Shown here in pieces: positions 5,003 to 37,553 of a stretch of 64,000 bases of DNA. Position numbers and translations under genes: made by a program. The DNA lies in contig OZ219753.1 in the NCBI GenBank assembly GCA_964291315.2, positions 1,600,001 through 1,664,000 on the forward strand, in the 5' to 3' direction. The first letter of the stretch is position 1, and every line of letters starts with the position of its first letter. The stretch comes from Candidatus Poribacteria bacterium. GTDB lineage: Bacteria; Poribacteria; WGA-4E; WGA-3G. Below the pieces are notes generated by a model that was not told where the DNA came from, ran no database searches, and was given only the letters and a program-made list of their open reading frames with translations.

Positions 5003-5076
5003 TCTTGCATTCGTCTAAATTCCTAGGTGCGCTCTATTCGCGCGCCGTTCCGCATTCACTCCCGATGCAGCTCAAC

Positions 5077-6347: not shown

Positions 6348-6470
6348 GTTCATCTTTGGATAAAGAGAGTCTTGAAAAACCGAACCGTTTTTGCTGCAAG
6401 CGTTGAAGAGGCACAGACTGACAGTCTATGCTACAAGTCCCTCACAGAGGAACCGAATACGTTCTGCTAC
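6348..6470. repeat. REP-like composite repeat, copy 2
   Basis: Same two blocks as 4908-5002; core palindrome at 6411-6435. Confidence 0.75.
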
Positions 6471-6598
6471 AAAAGAGCCTGATCACTCTTTTTTCGAACT
6501 CACGCTAATATACTTAATTGTTAAAACCTGTAGATTTTTGAGTCAACTGTAGGGAGAAAAGTAGGCGATCCGGTGACCTTCCAAAATTCAGAGCAATA

Positions 6599-7498: not shown

Positions 7499-7529
7499 TC
7501 AACTTCAAAAAAAGGAATGAGGTGACGTA

Positions 7530-8093: not shown

Positions 8094-8123
8094 GAACCCG
8101 CCGCTGTTGAAAGTCCTCTAAAA

Positions 8124-14234: not shown

Positions 14235-14408
14235 TTATACGGCATAGTATGTAACGCGGCGCAACCTAAGCGTTTGTGCTGCGTCAGAGAAATCTATCAT
14301 CGGCATACAGTATCACGGAACAAAGCTATCATGAGAATCATTTATTGTCAAGCATCTTGAATGTTTTGGTTTATTGGGAAAAAACTTCTCCATTAGGTAT
14401 AGAAAGTG

Positions 14409-15137
14409 TTAAGGTTTTTCTCCTTCTAATGCTTTCATATCTGGGGGCTTGGTTTCTACGATCCCTTGATCTGGATTGACGGCATTGTGGGCAACCATGG
14501 TTTTGAGGATCTGGTGTGCTAAGTCGATGTATTTCATTGCGGTTTTAGGATTCACTTCATTAAAGATGAGCTGTTTCTGGTAGCCGTAGAGGGTTTCTAA
14601 TTCTCGTGAAAGGTTCATGGAGATATCTAGATTCGGGCTTCGATGATTCGCGTAAAATTCACTTCGAGTTTGGGTAAATAGGGTCCGGTATTTATTCGGG
14701 AATTGAGCGTGATCGATATTAAGGCGGCGGAATCGATTGAACAGATTTTGTCGGAACGTCTTGAGGCGTTCTTGGTGATCGGTGATGGCTTCCTGTTGCA
14801 ATTTGATCTGGAGCTTGGTGAGCTTGGATTCGCGAGTCTCTTGATATTCTTCATGGGCTATTTCATTGAGTTTTTGATCGGCTTTGTCCCCGTATTCTTC
14901 TTCGAACTCTTCTGTGTATTCCTCAATGGCACTGTCGATGTATTCACGTTTTTCTTCTGCTTCTTCTTCGGTTAGCGGTTGGGCCAATAGTTCGTCGAGC
15001 TCGGGCATTTTTTCGAGCTGTGGGATTGGAATTTCATTCTCAAATTTTTCGAGGAATGCCTCGACGATGTCGGTTAATTTCATAAACCGAGCGAAACAGT
15101 TAACGACGAATTCTTTATGTTGTTCTGTGAGTTTCAT
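14409..15137 (-). CDS. DUF2280-like protein with acidic coiled-coil insertion
   Basis: N-terminal LTEQHKEFVVNCFARFMKLTDIVEAFLEKF and KYRTLFTQTRSEF...LAHQILK resemble DUF2280 by eye; AAGGAG RBS. Confidence 0.55.
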   Translation of the reverse strand: MKLTEQHKEFVVNCFARFMKLTDIVEAFLEKFENEIPIPQLEKMPELDELLAQPLTEEEAEEKREYIDSAIEEYTEEFEEEYGDKADQKLNEIAHEEYQETRESKLTKLQIKLQQEAITDHQERLKTFRQNLFNRFRRLNIDHAQFPNKYRTLFTQTRSEFYANHRSPNLDISMNLSRELETLYGYQKQLIFNEVNPKTAMKYIDLAHQILKTMVAHNAVNPDQGIVETKPPDMKALEGEKP

Positions 15138-15519
15138 TTTAATACTCCTTAAAAATGTTACACTGGTGTAACGTTTGATATCGTCATGTTATGGGCAAAG
15201 AACCCAGTGAATACAAGGGTTAACAAGCGTTATATTACCTTTGTGAAAAAAAAGCAATTTGGCAGAAAGTGTAACATTTTCTACAAACCTTGCACCTTTC
15301 TGGGAGCGGTAATGGGTTGTAGTTTCGTAAAACATTTTCTGCGTAGATAGCTGGATAACATGCTTTTTCCTCGATTATTCTGCTTCTCTAAACATCACAT
15401 AATATATGATAACACATATCACTTAATAAGTCAAATTTATTTTCTCCCCTATTTAAGTGTAGTTTTTAGGCGATGATTTCTGCTGTGTTTTAGATGCGTT
15501 AAAGACTTCTAGGAAGGTA

Positions 15520-15544
15520 TGGGTGCGGTTTGTAACCGCACCCA
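15520..15544. repeat. Palindrome (REP-like or terminator) downstream of the aminotransferase
   Basis: TGGGTGCGGTT-TGT-AACCGCACCCA, 11-bp stem. Confidence 0.55.
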
Positions 15545-15669
15545 CAAATTTAGGCGGTTGTCCGATGTGACAGTTTTGGACACGGACGCAAGCGGATTGG
15601 AAAATCTGACTCCTGCGCGGTTGCCTCAGTAAGCCGACTCACAAAGTGTGCGCAGAAGAGGAACTGACA

Positions 15670-16857
15670 TTACTGCAGCGCCTTTTTTATTCGGTCTAAT
15701 CCGCGGTTAATCTCTGTCAACGAGGTCGCGAAGGAGAGTCGGAGGTGTTTGTCAGCGCCGAACCCGTCGCCCGGTACAACGCCCACGCCTGCGGAGTTGA
15801 GAAGGTAATCGGTCATATCCATTGCGTTTTCTATTTTGTTTCCGCCGAGCGTTCTGCCGTAGTGTGCGGAAAAATCGGGGAAGATATAGAAAGCGCCTTG
15901 GGGTTTGGCATAACTGATTCCTTCGATGTCATCAAAACGTTGACAGATCACGTTTCGGCGTTCCTCGAACGCTTTTCGCATCTCTTCAACAGCGTCTTGT
16001 GGTTCATTAAGTGCGGCTAGAGCGGCTTTCTGAGCAATGGAGGTGGGGTTTGAGGTGCTGTGGGATTGGATACGCGACATCGCCGAGACGGCTTCTTCGG
16101 GACCCGCCGTATACCCGATCCGCCATCCTGTCATAGAGTAGGCTTTAGAGACACCGTTGACAACAAAGGTGATGGCTTTGGTCTGCTCATTGAAGGAGGC
16201 GGGACTCTGATGTGTCGCTGCATCGTAGAGCAGGGCTTCGTAAATTTCGTCGGAGATAAGGTAGACCTGATGCTTGACCGCAATATCGGCAACGGCTTTG
16301 AGGGTATCCAAATCGTACGTAGTGCCGGTAGGGTTGCTCGGACTGTTAAGGAGGATTGCCTTTGTCTTTGGCGAGAGAGCAGCCTCGACCTGCTGGGGGT
16401 CCATGCAGAAGTTGTCTGCCGGTGTGGTCTCAATGACGCGTGGTATTGCCCCGGCGAGTTTGATTTGCTCAGGGTAGCTGACCCAATAGGGAGCAGCGAA
16501 GATGACCTCGTCGCCTGGGTCACAGATGGCTTGAAAGATGTTATAGATGGTGTGTTTTGCGCCGCATGAGACGATGACTTCGGACGGTTTGTAGCTCAGT
16601 CCGTTGTCCCTTTTAAATTTGTCGGCAATCGCTTGGCGAAGTTCGGGGGTGCCGGGCACAGGCGTGTATTTCGTAAATCCTGCGTTGAGTGCGTCTATTG
16701 CTGCGTTTTTGATATAATCCGGTGTGTCAAAATCGGGTTCGCCTGCGCCGAATTTGACCACATCTACGCCCTCCGCGATCAAGGCGTTAATTTTGGCGGT
16801 GATCGCTAACGTGGAGGATGGTGTTACGCTTTGGCTTCGTTGTGATAAAGAGATCAT
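15670..16857 (-). CDS. aspC: Aspartate aminotransferase (PLP, class I/II)
   Basis: GAGEPDFDTP, NSPSNPTG, SDEIYE, SKAYSMTGWRIGY motifs. Confidence 0.88.
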   Translation of the reverse strand: MISLSQRSQSVTPSSTLAITAKINALIAEGVDVVKFGAGEPDFDTPDYIKNAAIDALNAGFTKYTPVPGTPELRQAIADKFKRDNGLSYKPSEVIVSCGAKHTIYNIFQAICDPGDEVIFAAPYWVSYPEQIKLAGAIPRVIETTPADNFCMDPQQVEAALSPKTKAILLNSPSNPTGTTYDLDTLKAVADIAVKHQVYLISDEIYEALLYDAATHQSPASFNEQTKAITFVVNGVSKAYSMTGWRIGYTAGPEEAVSAMSRIQSHSTSNPTSIAQKAALAALNEPQDAVEEMRKAFEERRNVICQRFDDIEGISYAKPQGAFYIFPDFSAHYGRTLGGNKIENAMDMTDYLLNSAGVGVVPGDGFGADKHLRLSFATSLTEINRGLDRIKKALQ

Positions 16858-16860
16858 TTA

Positions 16861-17420
16861 TTCTCCTTTGAAAATAAGTTTAGGTTTTGGTTTGTAGTAA
16901 AAGTTTCAGGCCGATGGGCCATTTCTTGAGCTGCGTAAGAGGTGTTTCAACCTGTTAATCCCTTTCTATTCAGTCAGTCACTCTCCGTTAAACGGCGGAT
17001 TTGCGATTCTAATCGCTCATACCTAGATTCTAATTCTCTGATTCTATCTTGAAGTTGGCGGTGAGTGCCCGGACGTTGAACAACCCTCGTCTCAAATTCA
17101 GAACGCTCAATCTGTTGAAATCGATTGTGGCGAAGATTTTCATAAAAAATCCAGGTGTCTCGATTTGTGCTATTCGCAAATACCCCGAACCTTGTATCCG
17201 TTGCACAGAGATAGGACTTTAATTGGTCAGGACCATACCCTACAACATTTTCTGGCTTACACTCGGCGATTGCAGCAAAACTCCCTTCTGGGTCAATTAG
17301 CACGATGTCAGCCCTGCGGCGGCTAACTCCCATCTGAATTTCGCATTCCCTTGCTGTGGAAAATTCTTGCCTGAGCTCAGAAAAATAAGACTTAACTTCC
17401 CTTACTACTTGAGCTTCACC
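16861..17420 (-). repeat. Duplicated cassette tail, copy A (nuclease + coiled coil + 3' region)
   Basis: Homologous to 18101-18470; e.g. 16865-16908 matches 18105-18148 at 36 of 44 nt. Confidence 0.8.
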
Positions 17421-18083
17421 GTCCTGAAAACCATCGGGCAGAACACGTATATTTCTAGTCCTAATTTGATACCGGGATGTGGGTGGAAAGATGTTAAAGT
17501 GCCCCTCTATACTAACATTAGCCCCTTCCCTTGAAGGAAAGTCACCTGCAATATCGGGAGAAAGTGTGCATTCAATCATTTCTGTGGCACCACTCTCATT
17601 AGCGTCAACATTTATGAGAGCCATACGGATATATCCTTGGTTAGTGCGGGTCCACTCGAAGATTTCCCCTTGAACCGTGATTGAATGGGGTTTTATACTG
17701 TTTTTTAAGGCGGTGGTTAGAGAACTAACGGAAACGGTTTGATCTGGCTGGCCAGCTCCAGGCGTTTCTATACCGGTAACAGCGAACTTATATGCTCCCC
17801 TGTCTCGAAGGAGGATAACCCTACCTGTGATAAACACTTCATTGCCTACTGACGGCACATTTTGAAAAAGGGAAGGATACGCCCTATGAATAAGACATTC
17901 AATCCTGCTTTTGGGGGACTCCATGTCTTGGAGTGTGAAAGCGTAAGGTAGATATTCTGGGTTCGCTGAGATTTTTCCACGTACCCAGACGTTTTGAAGT
18001 GCAGACTGCTCACTTATGACATCCGAGAACATATCCGTTACTTCACGAACGCTGTAGGTATCTATATTAATGTCGTTTGGCAT
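16974..18083 (-). CDS. Tandem exonuclease VII large-subunit-type OB folds fused to HsdR_N-like PD-(D/E)XK nuclease and coiled coil
   Basis: Two copies of (Y/V)SV..(V/L)T...V(R/Q)G(K/E)I...IEC...G..V.I.G....Y; then RRADIVL...IAECK...QLKSY...FGVFAN; GAGGAGG RBS before ATG 18083. Confidence 0.75.
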   Translation of the reverse strand: MPNDINIDTYSVREVTDMFSDVISEQSALQNVWVRGKISANPEYLPYAFTLQDMESPKSRIECLIHRAYPSLFQNVPSVGNEVFITGRVILLRDRGAYKFAVTGIETPGAGQPDQTVSVSSLTTALKNSIKPHSITVQGEIFEWTRTNQGYIRMALINVDANESGATEMIECTLSPDIAGDFPSREGANVSIEGHFNIFPPTSRYQIRTRNIRVLPDGFQDGEAQVVREVKSYFSELRQEFSTARECEIQMGVSRRRADIVLIDPEGSFAAIAECKPENVVGYGPDQLKSYLCATDTRFGVFANSTNRDTWIFYENLRHNRFQQIERSEFETRVVQRPGTHRQLQDRIRELESRYERLESQIRRLTESD

Positions 18084-18100
18084 GTGCACCTCCTCCTATA

Positions 18101-18470
18101 TTCGCCTTTGAAAATAAATTTTGTCTTCGGTTTGTAGTAAGGTTTTCAATCCGACGGATCGTTTTTTAGGCTGTTAAGCAGCCTCTCAAACTGTTGAATC
18201 CCTTCGTTCCATGCCGTCTCTTTCCGTTTAAGACGGCAAATTTCAGACTTTAAGTGCTCACATTCGGCCTCTAACGATTTGATTTTATCTTGAAATACAT
18301 GTGCATTCGGCGATCGCGGCAAAATTCCCTTCGGAATCAATTAGTACGACATCGGCCCTGCGGTGAGCAACTCCCATCTGAATTTGGTATTCCTTTACTG
18401 TGGAAAATCCTTCTTGTTTGAGCTCAGAAAAGTAAGACTCAACGACCTCTACTACTTGAGGTTCGCCTGC
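18101..18470 (-). repeat. Duplicated cassette tail, copy B (internally deleted)
   Basis: Homologous to 16861-17420 but missing about 65 codons after AIAEC. Confidence 0.8.
18146..18302 (-). pseudogene. Out-of-frame coiled-coil tail of the giant protein
   Basis: HVFQDKIKSLEAECEHLKSEICRL aligns with HRQLQDRIRELESRYERLESQIRRL of the neighbouring paralogue. Confidence 0.7.
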
Positions 18471-21400
18471 AGCACCCACTGCCGTCTCCACACCCGCTAC
18501 CTGCTCAGCGAAACGCGTCGCGATCCTACCTCTTATATCGTCGAACATCACATCCTGTAAAGCAGGCTCTATCGCCCGATAAAAAGCAGGAGCATTTTCA
18601 CGATTCGCTAATTTCTGAAGAATAACCTTCTGGAGAGCATCATATGCGGAAGACGCGAGGACAAAGTTTGTATTGTAATCAATCCCTTGAGGCACTGTAC
18701 CGGGTTCCGCACGGAAGAGGTCTATATTCTCAATCATATCATAATCTGCGGGGTCTAATTCTTCCGTCATCGCCTCTATCTGCTCAGCGGCATCCGTATC
18801 TCGCTGTTCTAATAACGGCATTTCAACCTGCCATTGTCCGTTGCCGACCTGTCGGACAGACACTCGCAGGTCATCCGTAATCTGATATATTGTTTCCCCA
18901 CTACTGAGTTCTTTAACACGGATATGTCCCCGGTGGACAGGGTTCAACCATGCGGAAAGCGTTGCGTAGTTCGCCTGTGCGAAGCTTTCAACGATACGCG
19001 GGAGCCGCTCTATCCGTGTCCCCTCTCCGTCCGTGCTATTTTCTACCTCTAAACTAAAGATAACCCTGTTTTGTCTACTTATACGCATCCGTGGCTCTAC
19101 GACCAACAAAATCTCTTCCCGAGGCCCCACAGCCTCCTGCGTCTCTGTCGCGGGAGAGCCCTCTATCGCCTGAGAGACCGCATTAATACGAATAAAGGGA
19201 TTGTTTGTAACCCGATAGGACGCACGGACTGCCCGGTGTTCTGTACCATCTACATCTACTGTGACCCCTTCTGCTTGGGTCTGTTCAGCAATAGGAGACG
19301 CGCCAGCAATCTCTTCCCTACGCGCACGAAGTTCCTGAGCGAGAGCTGTATCTGAAATTGTAACAGAATGTGTAAGCGAAGCGGTATCAAATGTCTCAGG
19401 ATCGAGCGTAAGACTATCTGCTACATGCTCCCTGCCCCCTTCACGCGTCTTGAGCACTGTGTTCAAAACATTCTGCGATTTTCGTCTCTGTCCACGAATT
19501 ACAGCAGGACGATAAGGAGCGTCCTTGAAATACTCCCCTTGCAACCGCCAGATAGCGTCCTTGACATCCCGTATCGCGATAGGATAGCTGCGCGTAATCC
19601 GTCGCATCTGTGATTCTAGAGAATCCACGACCTCTCGCAACGACTTTCGTAACACATCATTAGAGACATGCGTATCAATCGCATTTAAGAGAGCCTCCCG
19701 ACCTACAGGGCTCCCCTCCCCTACTTTAGGGAAGACCAAACGACGGATGCCCCAGCGATTGTAGACCTTCTGTACTTCCTCCGAACCCGATCTTGCGATT
19801 TCTACCTCTAAAGATTTTAGTAACCGTCTATAATTAGAAACCGAAGTTTCTAGCCCATTCTGCAGTGCCCGTTGCTGATCCACAAGTTCTTGAAGATTCT
19901 CAAGCACAGTCGCCCGTGTCTCTGCATCCAACTCATCTTTCAATTCATTGCGGTACCCCTCCATCCTGCGATCCGAGAGCGGAGGCTCTACATCAAACGC
20001 ATTTTCTACAAAATATTCAACCGTTACATTCTTTTCGAAGAAGCGGTCTTTATTAGAGTGATCAGCGAAGCGGTGGAATGTCTCTATAGCAGAAAGTGCA
20101 GCTGAATCAAAAGCGTTCGCAAGTATCTCTGCCTCGCCACTCTCACCCATATATCCTTCATCTTCATAAAAGGCTAATACGAGAGGGTCCATGTAAGAGC
20201 GAGCCGTACTCCGCTTCTTAAATCCTGAAGCGTTAATATCTCGGATCGTTAAACTCGCACCTGAGGCAGCGTGTGTCACCGAAGCGATAAAGGTATCAGG
20301 AGCAGATTGAGCAATCGCAATACGGAGCCCCGTCCCTGATTCATAAACACGCACACCATTAACAAAGCCTGTGGATTGCATAGCATCATTGCGATTCGGG
20401 ACACGCAATGCGACACCATCGGGCGTAAGCCCTGTAGATGACTGAGCGAGGGTGGATTGCCCCGATTGCACCATCTGCTCGTTGAAAGCCTTCACACCTT
20501 GAAGGAAACGCGTGTGACGCGCCTCTAGTTCCTGTGCGATAGCACTCTCAGACTCAGCGGTCTCTATGAAATTCGAACGAGAGATCTCTATATCGACACG
20601 GAAATGATGCTGGATACCCTCGGGGACAGGGGAGTAGTAAGCCCCCGCGAGGAACCTTATTGGTTCCATATCCCGATAAAGTTGTTCTAGCGTAGAGAGG
20701 ATATAAGACTCAGAAACCCCGTCAACTAAAATCCAAGGCGTTGTTCTACGGAGATATGCCCGTTGTGCTTGTATCGCAGCCTTGCGTTCATTATCTATCT
20801 CTGTCGCTTCCCGCGAAGATTCCCCTGGTGTCTCTGACTGTATGTCTACAGGGAGTTCACTTGTCTGCCGTCTGTGCTCAAAGCCACGTAGTGGTTCCGC
20901 TTCAAAAGTTGTCGGGTCCGGTACCCAAGCATCCGCCTCTCTTCTGACATAAATTCCGCGTTCGGTATCGAAAAAGGCGACACGCCTAAACTTCTCAGCG
21001 TTCACTGGGCTCCGTGCGGGAGATGGGAAATTCGCCTGAGACGGGTCATCCGCACGGTCTGTTAGCAACAGATGCATCTCTATGGGTTCGCCTTCTATCG
21101 CATATCTCTGAATATGGTCTACAGGAGGCGTATCCTTACCCGCATAATACTGCGTATCTTCAATATCTCTAGGTAGCCGGCGGACGGGGCCTGTATAGCG
21201 AGCATATGTTCGTGTCGGTCTCCGATCCAAAGCAGCGCGGACTTCTAGAGGTTCTAAATCATCATCAGTATCCGTCTCCGCGGCATCACGCTCCTCAAAT
21301 TCCTTCACAAAGGCAAGTTGTCGCTCTAACGCAATATCCGTTATCACCACCCGCGTCTCTCTGCGTCGCTCCGGCTCCCAGTTGCCATTTCTATAAACTT

Positions 21401-24400
21401 CTAAAACCGCAGCACGTTCTATTGCGGGGAAGCGAACACGCCTTTCATCACTAATTTCCCATACAACATCATCATTGACTTCCCTGCGTATATTGTAATT
21501 CCCAAAACTACCCGCTTCAATCATACGTCGCATGTGCCCGCGTACCGTATTTACGAACTTCCTGCCCACATATTCCCATAAAGACCGAGCATCTGCGTAA
21601 TCTATCTCTTCAAGCACGACACCATTATAGAAAACCTTTGCGACACCACTCCCCTCAAGGAACTCAACCACATACCCCTGGTATTCCTGATGCACATACC
21701 TACGGACAACAGGATTGTCATAATGCTGTTCCACCCAGTTTTTATCTGTTGGTGTCCATGTATTTTGAGCCTCTAATCGTCTCCTGAGTAGGCTCGGGAC
21801 TGCCCATCTGAGTTGAGCTACCGTGCGTTGAGCATCAAGAGAGTCCATCACTTCCCTATTGACCACATCAACTAAAGCCTCATATACATCGAGCCGAGTG
21901 TAGAGCGGAGTTTCTGAAGCGAACACAGCCGTCTCTATCGCTTGCGTCAACTCTGCACCAAACACGAACGCAATATCCCTTGACCAATCCTTCCAATCTT
22001 CTATAAGAATGTTATTAGGGTCAGTATCTGCTTCCCGCCAGCCAGTAATAGTAGGCGGTTTCCCTTCTTGAACCTCAACACGTTGTCCGAAGGGACGTAC
22101 TTTCGGGAGATTCCATCCCTTTTCAGCCGCAACTTCACGTTGAGACCAAAGGATGTATGAGATCGCTTCATGCGGAGAACGTGGTTGTCCGTCTGGTGTC
22201 TCTATAGCGACAGCCACTGCGGGGACAGGTGTCCCATTTGCGTCGCGGAAGACAGGAACCGATTCATCCCCACGGAAGGCATCTATCCTATATCTGAAGC
22301 CCGATTCTGTGGGTACCACCTGAACAGTAAAAGTATAGTCAGGCGACTCAACAACACCATCTGCCCCTAAATCAAAAGCGACAGTATCCCCTAGTTCAAA
22401 TCGCCAGGCACCCTGACCCCCCATATCTATCGCGGCAAGCTGGAGCGGGATATTCCCTGATAAAGAGAAACCATCTCGCATCACCATTGCGATAGGAGCA
22501 ATCGCCCTTCGCAACGCATCTGTTGTATTCAGCGGGCCTGTTTGCCAGTTCGTGACAAACACTTTATCACTTATCGTCCCATCTTTCCGGTTCTCAATTG
22601 TCACCTCACCCTTCTCACCCTTCTTGAATCGGATAGTTAAGTCAGAGCCGAGCATCGCGACCTGTACTTCTGTATCAGAGTCCTGGATCACCTCAAACTG
22701 TGTCCCCTTTGTCCTATCTATGTAAAAACGTGTAGACTCCCGTTTTGTGCCATCCGCATCCGTCTCCTCCATAGAAGCAACCGCCATCCGCAACTGCGTT
22801 GAGGGACGACGAAATACCTGCTTTTTATCAGGAATAACGACATATTCGTGCATCGCAGACGCAGGTACCAGTTTCCCCGTATTCGTCAACACTATATCTG
22901 AACGGGGACGCTCACCCGCTAACGTCTCTAGATTCTTTTGAAACGCAGAGAGCGGTAAATTGGTAAGAACGACACCTTTCAACTTAAATGCGTCTAGACC
23001 TCGGAGTTCTACAAAAGCCGATTGTAATGTATTGAGGAGCTGCTTTAAGGCGACACCCTCAGGCTCCCAAAGCGACATCATAGAGAAATTTTCATTTTTA
23101 GACGTAAACGTTTCAAGGTCTGCTGCGAGCTGCATCAACCGGTTCTGCTTAACCGTGTCTTCCGTATTCCCCGCGAGACGCTTGAGCATATGAGCCGTAT
23201 CCCCCGCCATATCTGAAAGCCCCGCACCCCGTCGCTCACCCGTTGCTCGCCATTTCCCATCAGGCCCCTTCTTCTTCACCTCTGCTGTAGCGGGTATAGA
23301 CCCATCATTCCAGAGGGCATCAAACCCATTTTCAGGAGCATTTATGACCATTTCATATGTATCAAACCATTGCGGAGCATAAATCTCATCTATCTGCGAC
23401 TCCCGTGGCACACCTGTTGCAGCGACCCGTCCTGCGAGAGACCGTATCTGAGCCTTAGGCGAACGCGGGTCTTCTACTACACCCTCACCGTCATCCTCCG
23501 TATCCTCATCTGCGTCAGGCGGGCGTTCCCCCGCTTCTATGATCTCTTCATCCGTCGCTGTATCCGGTTCCTCTGCTTCCGCTTGATCTTGTGCGAAGTC
23601 AGGATTATCTAAATCTATATCATCCATAGAGCCGACACCCTGGTTCGTAATCTCAGACAACAGCACAGTCTGTATCGTTTCTGGCGAATACTCCACCGTC
23701 TGCGGTACCGGGACAGATGTAATATGAGGCGTGAGACGCTGCATCTCTCTACGGATTGACTTGAGATAATTTTCCACCTGCGTCAAGATGTTTGGAGGGT
23801 CAGGGAGCCGCAACACGAACTGACGCACCGCTGCGATCTCCGCTTCTGTCGGACGAGCATCCGTACGGGACGTTTGATACCGAGTAATAAAAGACTTAAC
23901 TAAATCCCATTGCTGTTGCTTTTCTTTTATAGTGTAGCCTTTAAAGACAAGATCCGCGACAGAGAGGTCTTCAAGCTCTACAGGCGTTCCGAACGAGACA
24001 CGTTCTGTATCTCCTCTAACATCTGTTCTCCACAGATGCGGAGTTACCCACAGATATTCATAAAGTGCTTCATTCTCAGAGTCCCAGCCTTGCGAGAAAT
24101 CTGACCATGGCATTTGGAGCCGAATATTCAACGGGAAAGACAACGGCAAACGCAGGCCTTTATTCTGTGGCGTGACGACAGAGAGATATTTACCACTTAC
24201 AGAGAGACGTACCTCTATATCCCTGAAATTCCCTAAATAATAATGATATACCTGCTTTTCTGTCAGAACAGGGATTGAGGCGTAAGGAACATTCTCTTCC
24301 TGCCAGCTGAACGTCTGGTCTTCATCACGCGTATGGTGTTGCTCCCCTACCTTCGCGTACTCACCCCGTGTTACAATATCCTGTGGCGGTGCGAGACCAC

Positions 24401-27400
24401 CTTGTTCTGTATCTCGGGATGCGAGATTTACGACACGATACTTTAGATTACCACGACGCTTCACCGGTATCAGAGGATCGTTCGGGTGTGATTCTACGGA
24501 ATCAACAGAGCTATCCCCATAGATACCTGGATTTACAACACCGGGAGCGAGCGAACGGAAGAGATGCTCTACAGCGACAGGGAAGTCCTCACTACCAAAA
24601 ACGAGCCCCGCATATGCTTCCCGAGTTCCTAATTCGGAAGGGAACGCTGTCCGCATCCCAAGTTCTGCGGCACCTTCTGTCATTTCTGTCTCTAGTTGCA
24701 ACAGGTCTGCTTCTTGCGTCCGAGGCGTAGTGAGTTTCCACTCCACACTATCCTCAGGCCCCCTTCGCAAAATAAGTTCAAAGCCGGGATAATGCGCGTG
24801 TCTATAGATAACCTGTTGTACCGTCCCTTCCGTATCTGCTTTTAAATCTACAAGTGCGAGAGCACCCGCTGCCTTAGGAGCATACATAGACATCGCTTTT
24901 GTCACACGAACCTCACTCCGTCCGGCAATAGGGTCAGGCGGTGGAGCGGGAACTTCTCTCGCAATCCCTACAGGGTCAAACACCTCTGTGAGACCACCGG
25001 GCTGGATGTCTACCACACGCATCCCTAGCACATCGTGCATAATCTCGCCAAGAATAGAGCGGTGCGAGGCACGAGATTCACGTTCTAACGCCCCGAACGC
25101 AATCGCACTCTCTCCCAAAGCCTCCCCGGCGATATGAAGACGGATCGTGTCTTTAAGAAACATCCCGAGGTCTTTCTGTGTTTTCCGTAGATAGTTATGA
25201 TACGCAGCAGTAAAAGCAGGGTCAAGCCCACCCCTTCGGAGACGGTCATTTGTGCGCGTAATCCCTGAAAGTCTATCTATAATCAACTGATAGGCGTGGT
25301 CATTTTGAGAAGGCGTGAATTCGTGAGCTGCGACATACTTTATATCTGTATCCCTAAAAGATTCCCGCAGACGTTCTGCGTGAGACCAAGAATCTTCAAG
25401 AGCGTTTGTCTGTGGATTGCGTTGCCTGTCCCACATCGTCATCCGCACATCCACGAACACTTTAACACCAGAGGCTTTCAAATCCCTGTAGAATGTTTCA
25501 AAGTTTTCATAGTTACGGAGACCTATCAATCCCCCTGTAACAGTCCGTTCCGCTTCATCTAACGGAGTGACATATTCAAACTCAGAAGATGTTGTAGGTG
25601 CGGGGTGTCGTGCTGCGAGCAGGCGGTTGAGTATACGAAGTTCCGCAGAAGCACGGAGGGCCGCACTTTGTGTCGGTATCGCTCCCTCTTTTGTCAACTG
25701 GCTCTGAATCTCTCCGATACGATCCTGTAGTTGTCCTTCTGTCCAGTCCGCTGTTTTTGTTTCAAATTCCTGGTACGCTTTTTCTGCGAAAGCAGAAGTG
25801 GGATGTGTAAGTGTCGCGACCTCTTTGAGTGCTTTTAGGAGATTCTTTCCATCCCAAAGATATGTTGTTTCAATCTTCCCCGTCCGTTTATTTTGATACT
25901 CCCCTTTTTTGACCAGCGGGCTAGACTTTGTATTCTTGAGAACAATCACGCCAGGGAGTGTCGCGAGGTACTCGCTCCCTTCAAGTGGAGAACCGAAAAG
26001 AGCAGGGTCAAGGATAACAACAGGGCGGCCCGCTTGCAAGGATTTTAGAGCCGTATCTACTGCCTGGTCATTCTCTTTATGGCTCGCGTGTGTAATGAAA
26101 GTCACGTGGCTAAGAGACGCGATAAGAGCATTCTTCTGAAAGTTGTTCCTCTGATATGGCGATCTCCCTGTTGCCGTTGTCACCTCGTTGGCATCATAGC
26201 CTGTCGGATGCATAGAGATAGCACCCGCATTTACTCCATCAATTTCAGGCACATTCGGCTGATACTGAGCCGTTCGGCTAAAAGGCGTAGCACGCCTCTC
26301 TATCCCGCCGGGCATTGCGACCAGCACATTCGCCCGCTTCTGTTTTGTAACAGCTTTCACCACTTCACGCCCTGTGCCAAAGGTGCCATCTGTGACAGCA
26401 ATCTCCTCATTCAGTGCGGTAGCAAGTGCAGCCGCTGCATTAGCACCTTCTCCCTGTGCTTTATTATAGGCATCTATTCGCTCTTCAACCGCTTGATCCC
26501 ATTCTGAAGCATCCGTGATCCATCCGAGGCGAGTCGCAACATCTATCTTCTTCTGCCGCGTCTGCTCTTCTGTCTCTCCCATAGAAGAAAACGAGCTGTT
26601 ATTACGCTGAGAGCCTGCTATTCCGAAGGTCAGATTACCTTGAGCCGCTTTATTAAGAATCATCTCCGCAGTATTGTGGAGATAGAGCGACCTTATATCT
26701 ATCCCGAGAGCGTCAGCCGCGGACTGCATCCGTGGCGGTAAATCCGCAAAAGGCATTTGTCCCGCAGGTTCAGCGTCTGCGGGTGTCGGCACAGGTATTT
26801 TTCCATCTTTGAGCTGCTGCCGTATTTGCATCAAATGTCGGCCAAGTAGGTTCTCTCCCTTGACACCTTGCGGAGTTATATTCACACCCCAAACGGGTTT
26901 CGCGTTACTGATCGTCTCCCGGTCGGTGCTAATCGGTTCTACAAAAAGCAAACGACGGTCACCTGTTGCGAGGAGCCAGTCTGCGAGTGTCCTCGCCTCA
27001 CGAGCATCAAACTTGTAAAGCTGGGGAGACGCATATTTCGCAAGCAACGCTTCACGCATCAACGAACTCCTGCGTTGCACCCAGGCTGCGGTCTGTTCAG
27101 GCGTAAGTTCAGACTCATATTTATTCGCAATCTTCCACGCCTCTTCTGCGGTGTTTGCTCTACGGATACCTTCTGAGACAGGTATCTGTTGCCGTTTACC
27201 ATCACGAGCCCGTACCCACCACATCTTTAAGCCGCTGTTCGCAAACTTCATAGAGAGCATATAATGCTCAACAGAGGTATAACGTTGTCCGCCTATCTTT
27301 GGATAATCCGCAAAAAAAGTAGATAACGCGCGGAACGGGCCACGGAGCGATTCATAATTAAAATAGAGCGTATTGTTAACACTCCCCGCAGCTTCTTCCT

Positions 27401-28367
27401 CCGCGTCCACATCTAATCCCGCTTCATATTCCTGAAACTGCTCTAACCCCTCTTGGAACAGAGCCACTGTTTGCTGTAATTCTCGGAGCGTTTCTGCCTC
27501 TGTCTCTGTCCGCACATCCTTCGCTTCAAGTTCCGCAATATCCTCTTTTAAGTCTGCGATAGCTTTTTCAACATTCGAAACACTTAACTCCCCATCCTGC
27601 AATGCTTCAAACACTTCATTCTCTTGTCCGAAGGGAGAACCGAGGGTTTCCCAGCCATCGTCATCCGTATCCGCTTGTGCCTGTGCTTCACGTCGTTGCC
27701 GTATCCTGTCAAGGATTTTATTCGCTGCAGCATCACTTGTCCTTATCTTCGCAGTCTCTGGTATCTCTCGTTCTTCTTCTTCTGCTTCAGGCTCTCCGGG
27801 TTCTTTTATCGGCAGTTCTTCTTCCTGTTGCTGGGTTTCCTGCTCCTGTTCTTCTTCCTGCTCAGGCTCAGGCTCCGGTTCTGGTTCAGTTCTACGAGCA
27901 TATCGGGTCTGTCCCCCCTCTCTGCTACTATCTATTTCGTCAAAGAGGTTATCAACCGCCGTGATCAACGCTCGGAGTTCCAGCCATTGCGACAATCCCT
28001 CTGAGAAATAAGCCAGCTTTTCATGAGCCTTTCGAAGGTCTTTCACCTCTGCTTCGGTTAGCCCCGATTTCGCTTCGAGTTCCACAATCGTAGCTTCAAT
28101 CTGCGCTTTTCCTTCTTCAACCACAGCAACCGGCAGACCATCGCGGAGCGCACCAAACACTATATTTCCATCAGCAGCCTCTTCTCCAAACGATGACGTG
28201 AGTACGGTTGCTTCCTCTTCCACCTGATAGAGCGGGTGCGGTGGGCTTTCTTCTATTGCTGTATCGCCAACGAGTTCTGTTGTCTCATTGGTTTCTGATA
28301 CTCTTGAATAGCAGACATCTCGTCCGTCTCTCTCGCTGCTAATAAATCCTTTTTTCCGAGTTGACAC
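18285..28367 (-). CDS. Giant (3360 aa) polyvalent-type protein: repeated helical domain, NADAR, DprA/SLOG-like, DUF488-like, long unassigned region, truncated HsdR_N-like nuclease
   Basis: 10-kb uninterrupted ORF with GAGGAGG RBS before GTG. NADAR: LSTFF...SVEHY..SMKF...ALLAKY...LLATGDRRL...WG...GENLLGRHLMQIR. SLOG-like: GIAGS...KNALIASLS...AGRPVV. DUF488-like: VKVFVDVR...SHRSIL. C-terminus RRADVVL...IAEC. Confidence 0.8.
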   Translation of the reverse strand: MSTRKKGFISSERDGRDVCYSRVSETNETTELVGDTAIEESPPHPLYQVEEEATVLTSSFGEEAADGNIVFGALRDGLPVAVVEEGKAQIEATIVELEAKSGLTEAEVKDLRKAHEKLAYFSEGLSQWLELRALITAVDNLFDEIDSSREGGQTRYARRTEPEPEPEPEQEEEQEQETQQQEEELPIKEPGEPEAEEEEREIPETAKIRTSDAAANKILDRIRQRREAQAQADTDDDGWETLGSPFGQENEVFEALQDGELSVSNVEKAIADLKEDIAELEAKDVRTETEAETLRELQQTVALFQEGLEQFQEYEAGLDVDAEEEAAGSVNNTLYFNYESLRGPFRALSTFFADYPKIGGQRYTSVEHYMLSMKFANSGLKMWWVRARDGKRQQIPVSEGIRRANTAEEAWKIANKYESELTPEQTAAWVQRRSSLMREALLAKYASPQLYKFDAREARTLADWLLATGDRRLLFVEPISTDRETISNAKPVWGVNITPQGVKGENLLGRHLMQIRQQLKDGKIPVPTPADAEPAGQMPFADLPPRMQSAADALGIDIRSLYLHNTAEMILNKAAQGNLTFGIAGSQRNNSSFSSMGETEEQTRQKKIDVATRLGWITDASEWDQAVEERIDAYNKAQGEGANAAAALATALNEEIAVTDGTFGTGREVVKAVTKQKRANVLVAMPGGIERRATPFSRTAQYQPNVPEIDGVNAGAISMHPTGYDANEVTTATGRSPYQRNNFQKNALIASLSHVTFITHASHKENDQAVDTALKSLQAGRPVVILDPALFGSPLEGSEYLATLPGVIVLKNTKSSPLVKKGEYQNKRTGKIETTYLWDGKNLLKALKEVATLTHPTSAFAEKAYQEFETKTADWTEGQLQDRIGEIQSQLTKEGAIPTQSAALRASAELRILNRLLAARHPAPTTSSEFEYVTPLDEAERTVTGGLIGLRNYENFETFYRDLKASGVKVFVDVRMTMWDRQRNPQTNALEDSWSHAERLRESFRDTDIKYVAAHEFTPSQNDHAYQLIIDRLSGITRTNDRLRRGGLDPAFTAAYHNYLRKTQKDLGMFLKDTIRLHIAGEALGESAIAFGALERESRASHRSILGEIMHDVLGMRVVDIQPGGLTEVFDPVGIAREVPAPPPDPIAGRSEVRVTKAMSMYAPKAAGALALVDLKADTEGTVQQVIYRHAHYPGFELILRRGPEDSVEWKLTTPRTQEADLLQLETEMTEGAAELGMRTAFPSELGTREAYAGLVFGSEDFPVAVEHLFRSLAPGVVNPGIYGDSSVDSVESHPNDPLIPVKRRGNLKYRVVNLASRDTEQGGLAPPQDIVTRGEYAKVGEQHHTRDEDQTFSWQEENVPYASIPVLTEKQVYHYYLGNFRDIEVRLSVSGKYLSVVTPQNKGLRLPLSFPLNIRLQMPWSDFSQGWDSENEALYEYLWVTPHLWRTDVRGDTERVSFGTPVELEDLSVADLVFKGYTIKEKQQQWDLVKSFITRYQTSRTDARPTEAEIAAVRQFVLRLPDPPNILTQVENYLKSIRREMQRLTPHITSVPVPQTVEYSPETIQTVLLSEITNQGVGSMDDIDLDNPDFAQDQAEAEEPDTATDEEIIEAGERPPDADEDTEDDGEGVVEDPRSPKAQIRSLAGRVAATGVPRESQIDEIYAPQWFDTYEMVINAPENGFDALWNDGSIPATAEVKKKGPDGKWRATGERRGAGLSDMAGDTAHMLKRLAGNTEDTVKQNRLMQLAADLETFTSKNENFSMMSLWEPEGVALKQLLNTLQSAFVELRGLDAFKLKGVVLTNLPLSAFQKNLETLAGERPRSDIVLTNTGKLVPASAMHEYVVIPDKKQVFRRPSTQLRMAVASMEETDADGTKRESTRFYIDRTKGTQFEVIQDSDTEVQVAMLGSDLTIRFKKGEKGEVTIENRKDGTISDKVFVTNWQTGPLNTTDALRRAIAPIAMVMRDGFSLSGNIPLQLAAIDMGGQGAWRFELGDTVAFDLGADGVVESPDYTFTVQVVPTESGFRYRIDAFRGDESVPVFRDANGTPVPAVAVAIETPDGQPRSPHEAISYILWSQREVAAEKGWNLPKVRPFGQRVEVQEGKPPTITGWREADTDPNNILIEDWKDWSRDIAFVFGAELTQAIETAVFASETPLYTRLDVYEALVDVVNREVMDSLDAQRTVAQLRWAVPSLLRRRLEAQNTWTPTDKNWVEQHYDNPVVRRYVHQEYQGYVVEFLEGSGVAKVFYNGVVLEEIDYADARSLWEYVGRKFVNTVRGHMRRMIEAGSFGNYNIRREVNDDVVWEISDERRVRFPAIERAAVLEVYRNGNWEPERRRETRVVITDIALERQLAFVKEFEERDAAETDTDDDLEPLEVRAALDRRPTRTYARYTGPVRRLPRDIEDTQYYAGKDTPPVDHIQRYAIEGEPIEMHLLLTDRADDPSQANFPSPARSPVNAEKFRRVAFFDTERGIYVRREADAWVPDPTTFEAEPLRGFEHRRQTSELPVDIQSETPGESSREATEIDNERKAAIQAQRAYLRRTTPWILVDGVSESYILSTLEQLYRDMEPIRFLAGAYYSPVPEGIQHHFRVDIEISRSNFIETAESESAIAQELEARHTRFLQGVKAFNEQMVQSGQSTLAQSSTGLTPDGVALRVPNRNDAMQSTGFVNGVRVYESGTGLRIAIAQSAPDTFIASVTHAASGASLTIRDINASGFKKRSTARSYMDPLVLAFYEDEGYMGESGEAEILANAFDSAALSAIETFHRFADHSNKDRFFEKNVTVEYFVENAFDVEPPLSDRRMEGYRNELKDELDAETRATVLENLQELVDQQRALQNGLETSVSNYRRLLKSLEVEIARSGSEEVQKVYNRWGIRRLVFPKVGEGSPVGREALLNAIDTHVSNDVLRKSLREVVDSLESQMRRITRSYPIAIRDVKDAIWRLQGEYFKDAPYRPAVIRGQRRKSQNVLNTVLKTREGGREHVADSLTLDPETFDTASLTHSVTISDTALAQELRARREEIAGASPIAEQTQAEGVTVDVDGTEHRAVRASYRVTNNPFIRINAVSQAIEGSPATETQEAVGPREEILLVVEPRMRISRQNRVIFSLEVENSTDGEGTRIERLPRIVESFAQANYATLSAWLNPVHRGHIRVKELSSGETIYQITDDLRVSVRQVGNGQWQVEMPLLEQRDTDAAEQIEAMTEELDPADYDMIENIDLFRAEPGTVPQGIDYNTNFVLASSAYDALQKVILQKLANRENAPAFYRAIEPALQDVMFDDIRGRIATRFAEQVAGVETAVGAAGEPQVVEVVESYFSELKQEGFSTVKEYQIQMGVAHRRADVVLIDSEGNFAAIAECTCISR

Positions 28368-28516
28368 GTGTACCTCCTCACTCTATATTATTTTATACAA
28401 AAAACGTTCAAAAGAGAGAAAATAACCTCAGAAGAGATATTACTCCTCTTGGTGAAAATAGGAGCCCATTGAAGACATTTTCAGTGGCGACTTTCAAGTA
28501 GCTACGGTTCTCCGAA

Positions 28517-29383
28517 TCACAACGTTTTTTCGAATTCCTTCAGCAGGTTTCGCTGCTTGCGAGACAGCGATTTCGGTATTTCTACGACCAGCCTGACCTT
28601 TAAATCTCCTTTTCGTCCGGAGGCATCCACGGCGCCGCGCCCGCGTAAGCGGAGCTGCTGTCCGGGTTGCGCACCCGCGGGGATCTTTAGCTCGACATTG
28701 TCGGTGAGCGTTTTGATCCGAACAGAACCCCCTAACGCTGCGTCTGTCATAGAGATTTTGGCATCTGTTAGCAGGTCCAAACCGTCGCGTGTCAGGGTGG
28801 GATGAGGCTGCACAGAGACTGTTACCAATAGGTCCCCTGAGGTGCCTATTCCGCGAGATTCGCCTTGTCCTCGGATGCGGAGGGTTTTTCCATCTTCGAT
28901 AGTGGGCGGAATTGTAAGCGTGATCCGTTTTCCTCGGACGTTTACGTCTTTCTTACTGCCTAATACTGCGTCTGAGAAAGGGATAGTGATATTCATACGA
29001 ATATCTCGTCCACGGGCTGGCGTAGTAGTTCGGCGCTGTCCGAATGCGTCGCCGAATGCGTCGCTAAATCCGCCGAGCCCGCCGAACCCGCGTCCAAAAA
29101 TGTCATCTAAATTGAGGTGGGCGAAAATATCATCCGTGGTCCTATAGCCTTCGAAACCCATGTTGTTGACTCCGGCGTGCCCCTGTGTATCATAGACGCG
29201 TCGCTTTTCTGGATCAGAGAGCACAGAATAGGCATTAGAGGCCTCTTTGAACTTCTCTTCTGCTGCTTTATCGCCAGGGTTTTTGTCTGGATGATACCGG
29301 ACTGCAAGTTTGCGATACGCTTTCTTGATTTCGTCTGGCGTGGCTCCTCGGGCTATACCGAGGATTTCATAGTAATCTCTCAT
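28517..29383 (-). CDS. DnaJ-class chaperone without zinc finger (CbpA-like)
   Basis: J domain with HPD, G/F-rich region, DnaJ C-terminal domain, no CxxCxGxG repeats. Confidence 0.92.
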
Positions 29384-29427
29384 AGTATTTTCTGTGATAA
29401 AGGTTGTGCGGTGTATATCCGATCGAT

Positions 29428-30564
29428 TTAGAGCATCGCAAGAACTGCTGCAATATCATTTAAAGATCGATGCTGTTTTACAAGTGTGGTTCCGAATTGA
29501 AGTGCTGCTCTCTCTACCCGCAGTTTATGGGATATATCAACAATACTTTCTATATCTTTGACGTGGGCCGCCCCGATGAGACGGCGTAGGATCTCCAACC
29601 CTGCAAACCCGATTGCATCGTGAAAGATGCCCTGCAATACTTGTGCTTTCAATTTAGTATCAACTGTTTTAAATTCATCCGTGTAGATATGCCACGTTTG
29701 CATGAGGGCGGTTTTAAGCATCGATTGTACGCTTGCGGTGCCTCGGTGTGAAAAGTAGGATAAGAGGTAATTTGCCCAATAGCATCCGAGGTCAAATCCG
29801 ACGGGGCCGTAGAAGGCAAATTCGGCATCGATAACTTTGGCTGTGTCGTTTTGGACCAAAACGCTCCCTGTATGCAGGTCTCCGTGGGTAACGCCCTGTT
29901 GCGTTGTTAGGAAAATCTGTTTGAGGGACGCTGCCTGCCCCAAAAATTCCGGATCCGTTTTTAATTGTTGAACATCCTGTTCTAAGCCGGGTGTCCAGAA
30001 GTTCGTCTCATGGTCGGTATACGGGAAGGTGAATACATAGTCGGCAGTTATTGCCTGCATAGTTGTATTCGCGAATTGTTGGGCGTAGTGCTGTGCAGTT
30101 GCGGGGTCAAGATTCGCTACATAGGTCTGGCTATGTACAACCCCCATGAATCGTCCGATCTGCTCGGCGATTGCAAGGTCCACCCTGCCTGTGATCAGGT
30201 CGTCCCGTAGGACACGGGCATCTCGGAGGTCTTCCATAGCTATGACGGCTGTTTCCGCATCAAAGCTGTATTGCACAGGCACGGCGCTGCTTGCTAAGCG
30301 GTTGTAGACCTCTAGTGCGCGAGATTCGTAAGTCAACCGTTGGGTGGACAGCGGATACTCGGGCCCCAATATTTTAATATAGGGCGGTGCATATTTAAGG
30401 ACGAGCGAATGCTGTGGGCGCGCCGTGTCCGAGACGCGATAGATTGTGTTGAGGTTTCCATCGCCAATCTCTTCTACGCGCAATTCGGTATCAGCCCGAA
30501 ACATGTGGATATCTGCATGTCGCTGACGCAGGTAACTTGGTAGCGTGGCAAGGTTGATTTCCAT
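29428..30564 (-). CDS. mtnK: S-methyl-5-thioribose kinase
   Basis: [45 protein letters not shown]. Confidence 0.9.
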
Positions 30565-30577
30565 ATCTTCCGTAAGT

Positions 30578-31579
30578 TTACAACAGCAGCCCCTCAGCTA
30601 TCTGAATAGCATTTAAGGCGGCACCTTTGCGAAGATTATCTGCGACTACCCATAGGTTCAATCCGTTTTCTATAGAGGTGTCCTCCCGGATGCGCCCGAC
30701 GTAAACGTCATCTTTACCTGCGACATCTACTGCGAGTGGGTACTGCTGGTTGCTCGGATCGTCTATAAGTTTCACACCGGGGGCGGCGGCGAGGCGTTCT
30801 CTGGTTTCAGCGGCTGTGAGTTTTTCGTGCGTTTCAACATTTATCGATTCGGAGTGTGCAAAGAAAACGGGGACTCGGACGGTTGTCGCAGAAACGCCGA
30901 TCGTATCATCTTCAAGTATCTTCCGAGTTTCGTTAACCATTTTAACTTCTTCCTCGTTATCGCCGCTGTCTAAGAAGGGCCAATCAAATGCGACATTGAA
31001 TGCCATTTGGTGCGGGAATTTGTCCAAAGTAACGGGGATACCTGCCAGAGCGTCCTTCGTCTGTTGCACCAATTCTGTGACAGCCTTTCCACTTTTCCCG
31101 GAAACGCTCTGATACGTTGAAATGACAATCCGTTTGATACCGACTGCATCATGAATCGGTTTAAGCGCTAGCATCATTTGGATAGTGGAGCAGTTCGGGT
31201 TGGCGATAAGCCCGTTGTGAGTGTGAGCAGTATCCATGTTGACTTCTGGCACTACCAAAGGGGTCGCCGGATCCATGCGGAAGGCACTTGTGTTGTCAAT
31301 GACAAGCGCACCTTTTTGCACGGCTGTTGGAATAAACTCTCGACTAATCGATGCACCCGCTGACGAAAAGACCACGTCTACATCTTCAAACGACTCGTGC
31401 GTTAATTCTTCAACAACAATCGGATCATTTTTAAACGAGAGAATCTCACCGGCGGAGCGATACGATGCCAAAAGTTTCAGGGAGGCGATAGGAAACCCGC
31501 GTTCTTCTAAAATCTGCAACATAGTGTTGCCAACAGCCCCGGTCGCACCTACGATTGCTACACGATAACTTTCATGCAT
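30578..31579 (-). CDS. asd: Aspartate-semialdehyde dehydrogenase
   Basis: GATGAVG, ANPNCSTIQM, TYQSVSG, VRVPVFFAHSE, DNLRKGAALNA. Confidence 0.96.
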   Translation of the reverse strand: MHESYRVAIVGATGAVGNTMLQILEERGFPIASLKLLASYRSAGEILSFKNDPIVVEELTHESFEDVDVVFSSAGASISREFIPTAVQKGALVIDNTSAFRMDPATPLVVPEVNMDTAHTHNGLIANPNCSTIQMMLALKPIHDAVGIKRIVISTYQSVSGKSGKAVTELVQQTKDALAGIPVTLDKFPHQMAFNVAFDWPFLDSGDNEEEVKMVNETRKILEDDTIGVSATTVRVPVFFAHSESINVETHEKLTAAETRERLAAAPGVKLIDDPSNQQYPLAVDVAGKDDVYVGRIREDTSIENGLNLWVVADNLRKGAALNAIQIAEGLLL

Positions 31580-31777
31580 TTTTGATATTGTCCTTTATCT
31601 ATCTGTCTTCCTCAAACAGATCTTTCAGCAAACTTTATTTTTTTATAATATTACCACAAACGTAGCCTTTAAAGCAAATATTTTGGCAAGACGATCGGAA
31701 GAGGTGTGCATCGGAAACTCCGAACAGTAGGGAATTGAGGTAAAAATTCGCTTTAATACAGGTATTTAAAAAAAAAT

Positions 31778-37419: not shown

Positions 37420-37553
37420 AGCCAGGTTACGCTACACTGCAAAGACGCAGTCAGTCTCATTGCACAACCGATCAGGTTATACTAAAAAACAGTGTTGAAA
37501 GCCATTCCCTTATCGTGTATAATGTGTGAAAACGAATGAATAGGAGAACGTCC

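Follow-up and report, generated by a model that had tools for sequence, protein, structure and literature searches.

When one gene outgrows every other in a bacterial genome, the question is where it came from and what, if anything, it does for its host. The gene considered here lies in a 64,000-nt stretch of the chromosome of a sponge symbiont, a Candidatus Poribacteria bacterium (GenBank assembly GCA_964291315.2, contig OZ219753.1, positions 1,600,001 to 1,664,000), called the window below, and consists of an open reading frame (ORF) of 3360 codons on the minus strand, at 18285..28367. No other ORF in the genome (4.4 Mb, 4 contigs) is as long; the runner-up encodes 2452 residues. The best explanation is that this giant is a chimeric host gene, made up of a host start, a foreign body and the remnant of a host module, and that its body is a captured fragment of a giant gene from a mobile replicon, most likely recent and largely inert in its present host. 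The capture itself is well supported; to the reading as a whole we would assign a probability of roughly 0.68.

The ORF begins with GTG, preceded at a distance of 6 nt by a GGAGG ribosome site, and encodes an acidic protein (net charge -158) with Glu/Asp/Pro-rich linkers at residues ~141-240 and ~1581-1660 and, judged by eye, no signal peptide. A preliminary description of the window, made from the letters alone, had reported just such an acidic ORF with linkers rich in these residues, and had recognized NADAR, DprA/SLOG-like and DUF488-like units within it. The ORF proved real and all three units were recovered. NADAR (PF08719, residues 357-520, 26808..27299) passes the Pfam cut-off outright (E 4.2e-12, 47 bits against 35.1), and is the only part of the giant detected by NCBIfam and by PHROGs (phrog_1017, E 8.6e-11). 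DprA (PF02481, residues 735-799, 11.9 bits against 29.6) and DUF488 (PF04343, residues 956-1023, 15.9 bits against 22.2) fall below their cut-offs in the giant itself. Both are nonetheless confirmed, because collinear relatives, introduced below, reach or pass the same thresholds: DprA scores 33.2 bits in P0007 and 32.3 bits in P0009, DUF488 scores 22.3 bits in P0009, barely over the cut-off, and both families appear among the precomputed matches of P0004. A DprA/SLOG superfamily assignment thus seems sound for the family and extends by alignment to the giant, where the predicted Rossmannoid domain occupies residues ~640-805 (25953..26450). The DUF488-like assignment (residues ~956-1100, 25068..25502) is marginal; weak tblastn matches of 167-residue frames in two other genomes (G031 and G037) fall on this same region.

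The rest of the chain has few recognizable landmarks. Ahead of NADAR lies a helical module of ~75 residues in two copies, residues 57-133 (27969..28199) and 243-316 (27420..27641), which phmmer relates to one another with a domain E of 1e-10. This is an old internal duplication; the relatives have one copy before NADAR. A BLASTP self-comparison found no internal repeats in the giant, and phmmer gave this N-terminal pair alone. Beyond the DUF488-like domain, ~2160 residues (18484..24980, with the second acidic linker at 23388-23627) are conserved in the family and match no recognized family or fold, and the giant matches none of the families in PADLOC.

A word-indexed search of 5.8 billion proteins, using the whole protein and near lengths, matched the giant to itself alone. 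The orphan status that this implied was a false impression left by word indexing, as an exhaustive HMMER search did find relatives: residues 1660-2859 recovered 13 of them among 1.84 billion representatives, and a further search added two more (P0022 and P0023). With residues 330-1130 as the query, one 695-residue protein was retrieved, 42% identical over residues 512-1189 and carrying DprA and DUF488. Every relative is a protein from a metagenome assembly in ENA. By BLASTP, residues 218-3293 of the giant are collinear with residues 880-4040 of the 7439-residue P0005 at 34% identity and with residues 115-3327 of P0008; P0007, P0009 and P0010 align at 33-38% identity, and P0013, P0015 and P0016 more remotely. 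NADAR, DprA and DUF488 follow in identical order in the relatives, so that homology spans every domain junction of the giant.

The relatives also reveal how much of the gene is missing. Complete members of the family run to 7307-7912 residues, have their N- and C-termini in common, contain 0-3 cysteines and carry net charges of -295 to -372; identity between members of the family is 25-53%. The family-homologous part of the giant shares this oddity, with no cysteine at all in a genome whose median cysteine content is 1%; the three cysteines of the protein are residues 19, 3355 and 3357. It lacks ~700-900 N-terminal and ~3400 C-terminal residues of the family, and by tblastn these parts are absent from the rest of the host genome. 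Since it is collinear with residues 880-4040 of P0005, there is good support for taking the window protein as an internal part of a gene far larger than itself. The family of the parent, apparently undescribed, combines a fixed head of NADAR, SLOG and DUF488 with more than 5000 residues of unknown fold.

Two further features of the relatives deserve mention. RRM_1 occurs in the precomputed Pfam lists of P0005, P0022 and P0023 and, going by scans of shorter relatives, is probably located in the C-terminal region missing from the window protein. On two contigs the giant gene is called as at least three collinear pieces, ~10-20 residues apart (P0004/P0006/P0011 on a contig of 129,618 bp; P0010/P0014/P0017 on one of 126,574 bp); such split calls could reflect sequencing errors, frameshifts or recoded stops.

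Where host sequence gives way to foreign sequence can be read almost to the base. On the upstream side, 28450-28360 matches by blastn the leader and start of genes for OB-fold/HSDR_N_2 proteins in three relatives of the host. This host part (28361..28450, minus strand) comprises the 5' leader, the GGAGG, the GTG and the first 7 bases of the ORF, and is common to the starts of such genes in relatives and to the empty allele described below, whose joint ends at 28361. Immediately beyond it, 28463..28513 (minus strand) matches an internal stretch of a Macro-domain gene, which relatives carry intact at this place and of which a remnant is left here (blastn to loci L019, L022 and L026, with a shorter match to L015). 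On the downstream side, family homology stops at 18483-18489 and a host repeat begins at 18467. Because family homology ends and host homology begins at these points, the foreign segment can be delimited as 28360 down to 18468-18483, that is, ~9.9 kb (at most 18468..28360) encoding residue 3 to residue ~3295-3300. All of it is coding, and it is in frame with host sequence at both ends.

The last ~55-60 codons of the giant come from a resident gene of the OB-fold/nuclease-like kind. Some 55 residues (18302..18467, minus strand) match, with 73% protein identity and 82% DNA identity, the HSDR_N_2-like, PD-(D/E)xK module of the neighboring gene at 16974..18089 (minus strand), an intact resident paralogue with two OB folds (tRNA_anti_2), HSDR_N_2 and a coiled-coil tail. 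The frame of the giant ends 5 codons past the Glu-Cys of the module, before the expected Lys, so the fusion holds only the first ~55 residues of HSDR_N_2 (PF13588); the Glu-x-Lys and the strands behind it are deleted or out of frame. By blastn, 18412-18302 (84%) and 18293-18094 (80%) match a single gene of genome G017 with ~197 nt missing between them, and what is left of the coiled-coil tail (18146..18293) is out of frame after this deletion. Direct repeats tie both the module (82%) and the spacer downstream of it (75%) to those of the neighbor, which confirms them as tandem paralogues. Matches to the giant in 40 relatives fall on its last ~57-85 residues alone, apart from two weak ones to DUF488.

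The position of the piece agrees with the earlier suggestion of a host cassette from which it would be expressed: it sits behind the ribosome site and start of a resident gene, and runs in frame into what remains of the C-terminal module of that gene. The parts kept from the host are the leader, the ribosome site, the start codon and the first two codons. A scan of the 150 nt ahead of the start codon, minus strand, found no consensus promoter, which says little for this phylum. The likely course of events is that a ~9.9-kb internal fragment of a larger gene would have taken the place of the OB folds in one member of a tandem pair of OB-fold/HSDR_N_2 genes, leaving a foreign body that runs in frame into a nuclease-like module crippled by a frameshifting deletion of ~197 nt.

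Joining so abruptly might also be the work of an assembler. The genome is a metagenome-type assembly (completeness 95.2%, contamination 3.49%), and a mis-assembled metagenome bin could have joined the giant to the chromosome. Among public sequencing runs, one DNA run (X1) contains the stretch and no RNA run is listed as containing it; two more runs from the same study (X2 and X3) contain almost none of it. Read depth in X1 is 424-448 over the giant and ~800-1000 on the flanks (region 14000-31600), and in X2 and X3 depth over 18696-28087 is 0 in most bins (2-9 in two X2 bins) between flanks at 3200-8200. In one contig of X1 (depth 456) and one of X2 (depth 3152), position 18059 is followed by 14 unrelated letters and then by 28361, an empty allele that has one OB/nuclease gene and no giant. 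Its flanks are ~99% identical to those in the window, with 23 differences in 2547 positions on one side and 9 differences plus 1 gap in 642 on the other. X1 contains two strains, a circumstance in which mis-joining might be feared. Yet in X1 the depth of the giant and that of the empty allele add up to the flank depth, and a separate Logan assembly of X1 contains contigs (17936-22035 and 22063-28428) that span both junctions with 0 differences, which argues for a presence/absence polymorphism still segregating between strains and against a chimera of assembly. The precise in-frame boundaries with host-homologous sequence at both junctions point the same way, and a mis-assembly is very improbable.

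The two alleles differ in more than the giant. The OB/HSDR_N_2 gene at 16974-18089 is highly diverged in X2 and X3, with insertions and deletions clustered at 17706-17736 and 112 nt that cannot be aligned, which suggests diversifying exchange at this gene between strains. Since the OB/nuclease gene itself differs so strongly between alleles, the spot is evidently swapped in its entirety, as a haplotype. The Macro remnant is found in both alleles (the X2 contig covers 28361-29002), so the giant did not replace the Macro gene.

Could the giant have evolved in place, as a native gene peculiar to this lineage? Its G + C content (0.498, against 0.489 for the genome) and its host start signals would allow it. 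That said, the 175 other genomes searched from the phylum gave no match to residues 330-2300, strains with ~99% identical flanks have an empty allele, the protein is collinear with the middle of proteins of 7300-7900 residues, and its composition is atypical; a native origin can hardly be correct. The absence from the phylum also disposes of conserved, syntenic orthologues, which the preliminary description had named as the finding that would overturn a foreign origin. That description had recommended a comparison of codons and tetranucleotides as well, having judged by eye that AGA and ATA were used more than in neighboring genes. For ATA this is borne out: it makes up 39% of isoleucine codons in the giant against a genome median of 16%, a share reached by 1.8% of 1851 ORFs of at least 300 residues and by 2 of 104 ORFs above 1000 residues, the giant included. 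For AGA it is true only of the surroundings, as the share of arginine codons (11.4%) exceeds that of six of the seven neighbors (4-14%) and not the genome median of 13%. Tetranucleotide use places the 9.9-kb segment at the 99.5th percentile, with only 4 of 882 equal-sized windows further from the genome mean.

The donor of the captured piece has to be sought among the contigs that carry the relatives. Eight of these are of similar length (113,005; 119,403; 120,432; 125,902; 126,574; 127,716; 128,652 and 129,618 bp); the other seven are 9-67 kb, and none exceeds 130 kb. Because eight contigs cluster at 113-130 kb with none longer, despite members only 25-53% identical, the cluster suggests complete mobile replicons of one size class, and the donor would accordingly be a ~113-130-kb replicon, phage or plasmid. 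The preliminary description had spoken of a captured piece of a phage or plasmid gene. That it is a piece stands, on its collinearity with P0005; a phage or plasmid source finds no database match. Hence it might be argued that the relatives are chromosomal giant genes of an unsampled bacterial lineage, passed on by ordinary gene transfer. The lack of phage or plasmid matches of any kind would fit a cellular donor, as would the occurrence of giant acidic proteins in cellular genomes. Against it stand the narrow size class of contigs among such diverged members, the origin of every relative in a metagenome assembly, and the failure of pattern scans, of limited sensitivity, to find a relative when one genome for each of 185,579 species was scanned. 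On balance a cellular donor is unlikely.

What the parent protein might do is suggested by its recognized domains. In the available parts of the papers concerned, NADAR is described as reversing guanine ADP-ribosylation (PMC11543638), phages as carrying orphan antitoxin-like enzymes against DarTG1 (PMC11825919), and SLOG, Macro and NADAR domains of DNA viruses as often fused and as proposed destroyers of ADP-ribose-derived immune signals (PMC9503650, PMC7824862). A matching threat exists in the host lineage, since the host genome encodes a DarT-family gene (PF14487, 80.3 bits, contig C3:264827-265372, minus strand, inside a 464-residue frame), a DNA ADP-ribosyltransferase of the type against which NADAR or Macro enzymes act. 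From the three domains, this literature and the DarT-family gene we infer that the parent protein would be a very large counter-defense factor of a mobile element. As such a multi-enzyme factor in its donor, its NADAR domain would take ADP-ribose off bases of nucleic acids or off signals derived from ADP-ribose, nucleotides or single-stranded DNA would be bound by its SLOG/DprA-like domain, and its acidity and lack of cysteine would suit a protein that is packaged or translocated unfolded. Were the ~120-kb contigs complete replicons, the protein would be a candidate for a large counter-defense factor against ADP-ribose-based immunity in sponge symbionts. The fragment in the present host would keep at most the NADAR, SLOG and DUF488 activities.

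Several known systems resemble the giant in part. The polyvalent proteins of Iyer et al. 2017 (PMC5512222, available in part) are likewise huge chains of unrelated enzymatic and binding domains with linkers, copies of which occur on host chromosomes away from phage or conjugation neighbors, as here. The giant had been described beforehand as of this type, on a piece of chromosome without integrase, phage structural or conjugation genes. The second point was upheld: none of these families, nor any portal-terminase or type IV secretion system (T4SS) family, was found among the 21 neighboring ORFs scanned. The first is true insofar as NADAR, DprA/SLOG and DUF488 put several unrelated activities in one chain. 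However, no hub domain of the kind listed by Iyer et al. (ArdC-N, zincin-like peptidase (MPTase), SNF2 ATPase, N6A methylase, ART) and no LPD domain was detected in Pfam scans of the giant (E up to 1) and of 7 relatives (E up to 0.01), and the precomputed Pfam lists of four members above 6700 residues hold only NADAR, DprA and RRM_1. NADAR, SLOG and DUF488 are mentioned nowhere in the available main text of PMC5512222, and the fixed collinear architecture of the family over more than 3000 residues differs from the shuffled one of polyvalent proteins. Membership in that class is not established.

Closer in domain content are phage proteins that fuse SLOG to NADAR or to Macro (Iyer et al. 2022, PMC9503650; 2021, PMC7824862), in which, as in the giant, NADAR stands beside a SLOG-superfamily domain. 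In the accessible portions of those papers such proteins are mostly small or stand-alone, whereas here the pair makes up ~15% of a 3360-residue piece and ~7% of its 7300-7900-residue parents; unlike them, the giant has DUF488 after the NADAR-SLOG pair. No paper in the literature searched has NADAR and DUF488 together, and a jumbo-phage survey was the sole match for giant NADAR/DprA/SLOG proteins. With the DarT-NADAR antitoxins and the orphan enzymes of T4-like phages, as the available text of PMC11543638 and PMC11825919 presents them, the giant shares a NADAR above the Pfam cut-off, but it has no adjacent DarT.

Attempts to go beyond these domains through structure were less productive. A sequence search of the PDB with the whole giant gave 0 matches, and phmmer of the NADAR part against solved NADARs reached YbiA only at E 1.2, too weak for an alignment of catalytic residues. 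ESM Atlas gave no usable match for residues 1190-2500. AlphaFold2 models built on family alignments of 10-11 rows reached a mean pLDDT of 62.2 for residues 1190-2300 and 56.8 for residues 2301-3300, and are multi-domain and partly of low confidence. Foldseek against the PDB found nothing at E <=0.001 for the first of these models, and wide VIA-align searches were swamped by hairpins and bundles of helices, with best Z of 8.2 and 8.6 that do not rise above the stated background. One stretch of the first model (model residues 1032-1098, giant residues ~2221-2287, window ~21507-21707) is a sheet-plus-helix like the N-terminal domain of AcrIF24-type anti-CRISPR chains, a likeness (Z 6.4-6.6, 63 aligned residues, root-mean-square deviation 2.4-2.6) that is within background and no more than a lead.

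Whether the captured piece still works is a separate matter. A protein truncated at either end, a nuclease module that is broken and a distribution limited to one strain make a recent, inert capture the likeliest state. In an alignment with eight other members, the giant departs at 10 of 116 columns (8.6%) that are invariant in the others, within the range of 2.8-19.7% seen for those members themselves. Among the changed residues are H475F (NADAR) and G660D (Gly-rich loop of the SLOG domain). The alignment gives no sign of excess decay, which would fit recency or constraint. As an alternative, the NADAR-SLOG-DUF488 piece may have been domesticated for defense, kept as an ADP-ribose eraser, decoy or sensor that took over the role of the Macro gene. 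In favor of this are the host ribosome site and start, in-frame junctions on both sides, an intact 10-kb frame with its conserved residues retained, the reduction to a remnant of the Macro-domain gene that relatives have at this spot, a DarT-family gene in the host, and the suggestion, in the available part of Iyer et al. 2017 (PMC5512222), that host-acquired polyvalent proteins lacking phage or conjugation neighbors might serve defense. Weighed against these are the fused nuclease module, cut before its catalytic Lys by a frameshifting deletion, and the Macro remnant of the empty allele, which the giant cannot have displaced. The piece is found in one strain only and matches nothing in PADLOC. 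Domestication is a serious but less likely alternative.

A recent, inert capture from a mobile replicon has its own difficulties, and they fall into two groups. The first concerns the donor, whose mobile nature is deduced from contig sizes and from absence in the cellular genomes searched. The preliminary description had proposed searching segments of the giant against viral and plasmid databases, and the outcome was negative throughout: tblastn of residues 1-3000 found no match in 50,697 phage records or 72,556 plasmid records, pattern scans (two of each collection, built, like those above, from family alignments A2 and A3) found no relative among IMG/VR viral contigs or in JGI metagenomes, and both fold models gave top rows of TM <=0.10 in BFVD, with no meaningful fold match. 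Nor does the giant or any relative match a phage or conjugation family beyond the NADAR-like PHROG. The second group concerns age and function. X1 may be the source sample of the genome and so is not independent support, the codon and tetranucleotide deviations may be inflated by the unusual amino-acid composition, and the alleles differ across the whole hot spot, so that either gain or loss of the giant may have come last. The intact 10-kb in-frame ORF and its 10 departures in 116 columns fit maintained function equally well.

A bolder version of events can be framed from the same material. There may be a new lineage of ~113-130-kb replicons that devote about one-fifth of their genome to one 22-kb gene, for a cysteine-free, hyper-acidic multi-enzyme protein of ~7500 residues delivered into the host, the central third of which was captured in place of the DNA-binding part of an OB/nuclease gene and turned into a host-expressed decoy, sensor or ADP-ribose eraser, so that a scrap of counter-defense would have become a defense. 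We regard this as a long shot. Should the ~120-kb contigs be complete replicons, they would represent a novel type of element, one that invests to an extraordinary degree in a single protein. The locus itself gives a rarely clean, base-level view of a host capturing a giant foreign gene fragment, with defined junctions, an in-frame fusion and an empty allele still segregating.

The setting in which this happened is a spot of high turnover. The preliminary description had placed the giant among housekeeping genes. The two genes on either side, a DnaJ-like gene (28517..29383, minus strand) and a class I/II aminotransferase gene (15670..16857, minus strand), are conserved; they are found in 31 of the 31 genomes of the genus sampled and lie on one contig in 26 of the 30 other genomes. 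Between them, however, is a hypervariable spot: three genomes have a gap of ~95 nt, the others one of up to 7.2 kb, and here it is 11.66 kb. In 10 of 16 loci examined it contains genes with an HSDR_N_2 nuclease-like module, either alone or combined with OB folds (tRNA_anti_2) or HhH motifs; other cargo in relatives includes DUF433-PIN (DUF433-PIN_10) pairs and a ~310-residue gene of no family, and the Macro-domain gene, of 191-214 residues, lies directly upstream of the OB/HSDR_N_2 gene. Conserved flanks around contents that range from nothing to 7 kb across the genus recall defense islands and their hot spots; those differ in that no recognized defense system was matched here and the cargo is a gene fragment fused in frame, not a cassette. 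The Macro, OB/HSDR_N_2, DUF433-PIN_10 and ~310-residue genes of loci L015-L021 may together form an unrecognized conflict system linked to ADP-ribose. PADLOC run on six hot-spot proteins of relatives matched none at E <=0.001 and gave one weak JetC row (E 0.005). A Macro paralogue, 57% identical, is encoded elsewhere in the window at 7530-8093, 20 kb from the hot spot.

A few other genes of the window are worth recording. Just past the aminotransferase flank lie a DNA methylase-HNH nuclease fusion and an adjoining DUF7607 protein (12855-14234 and 14409-15137, minus strand), both ~99% identical in the other strains compared. A type IIG restriction-methyltransferase (PADLOC PDLC03628) is spread over two plus-strand frames, 37536-39698 and 39865-40752, which lie 166 nt apart and correspond to profile positions 3-719 and 789-1095, and the gene is possibly disrupted. 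Finally, a 1456-residue frame at 57186-61556 (minus strand) combines a fatty acyl reductase, an AMP-binding enzyme, a carrier domain and an acyltransferase, and looks like a lipid-building megasynthase.

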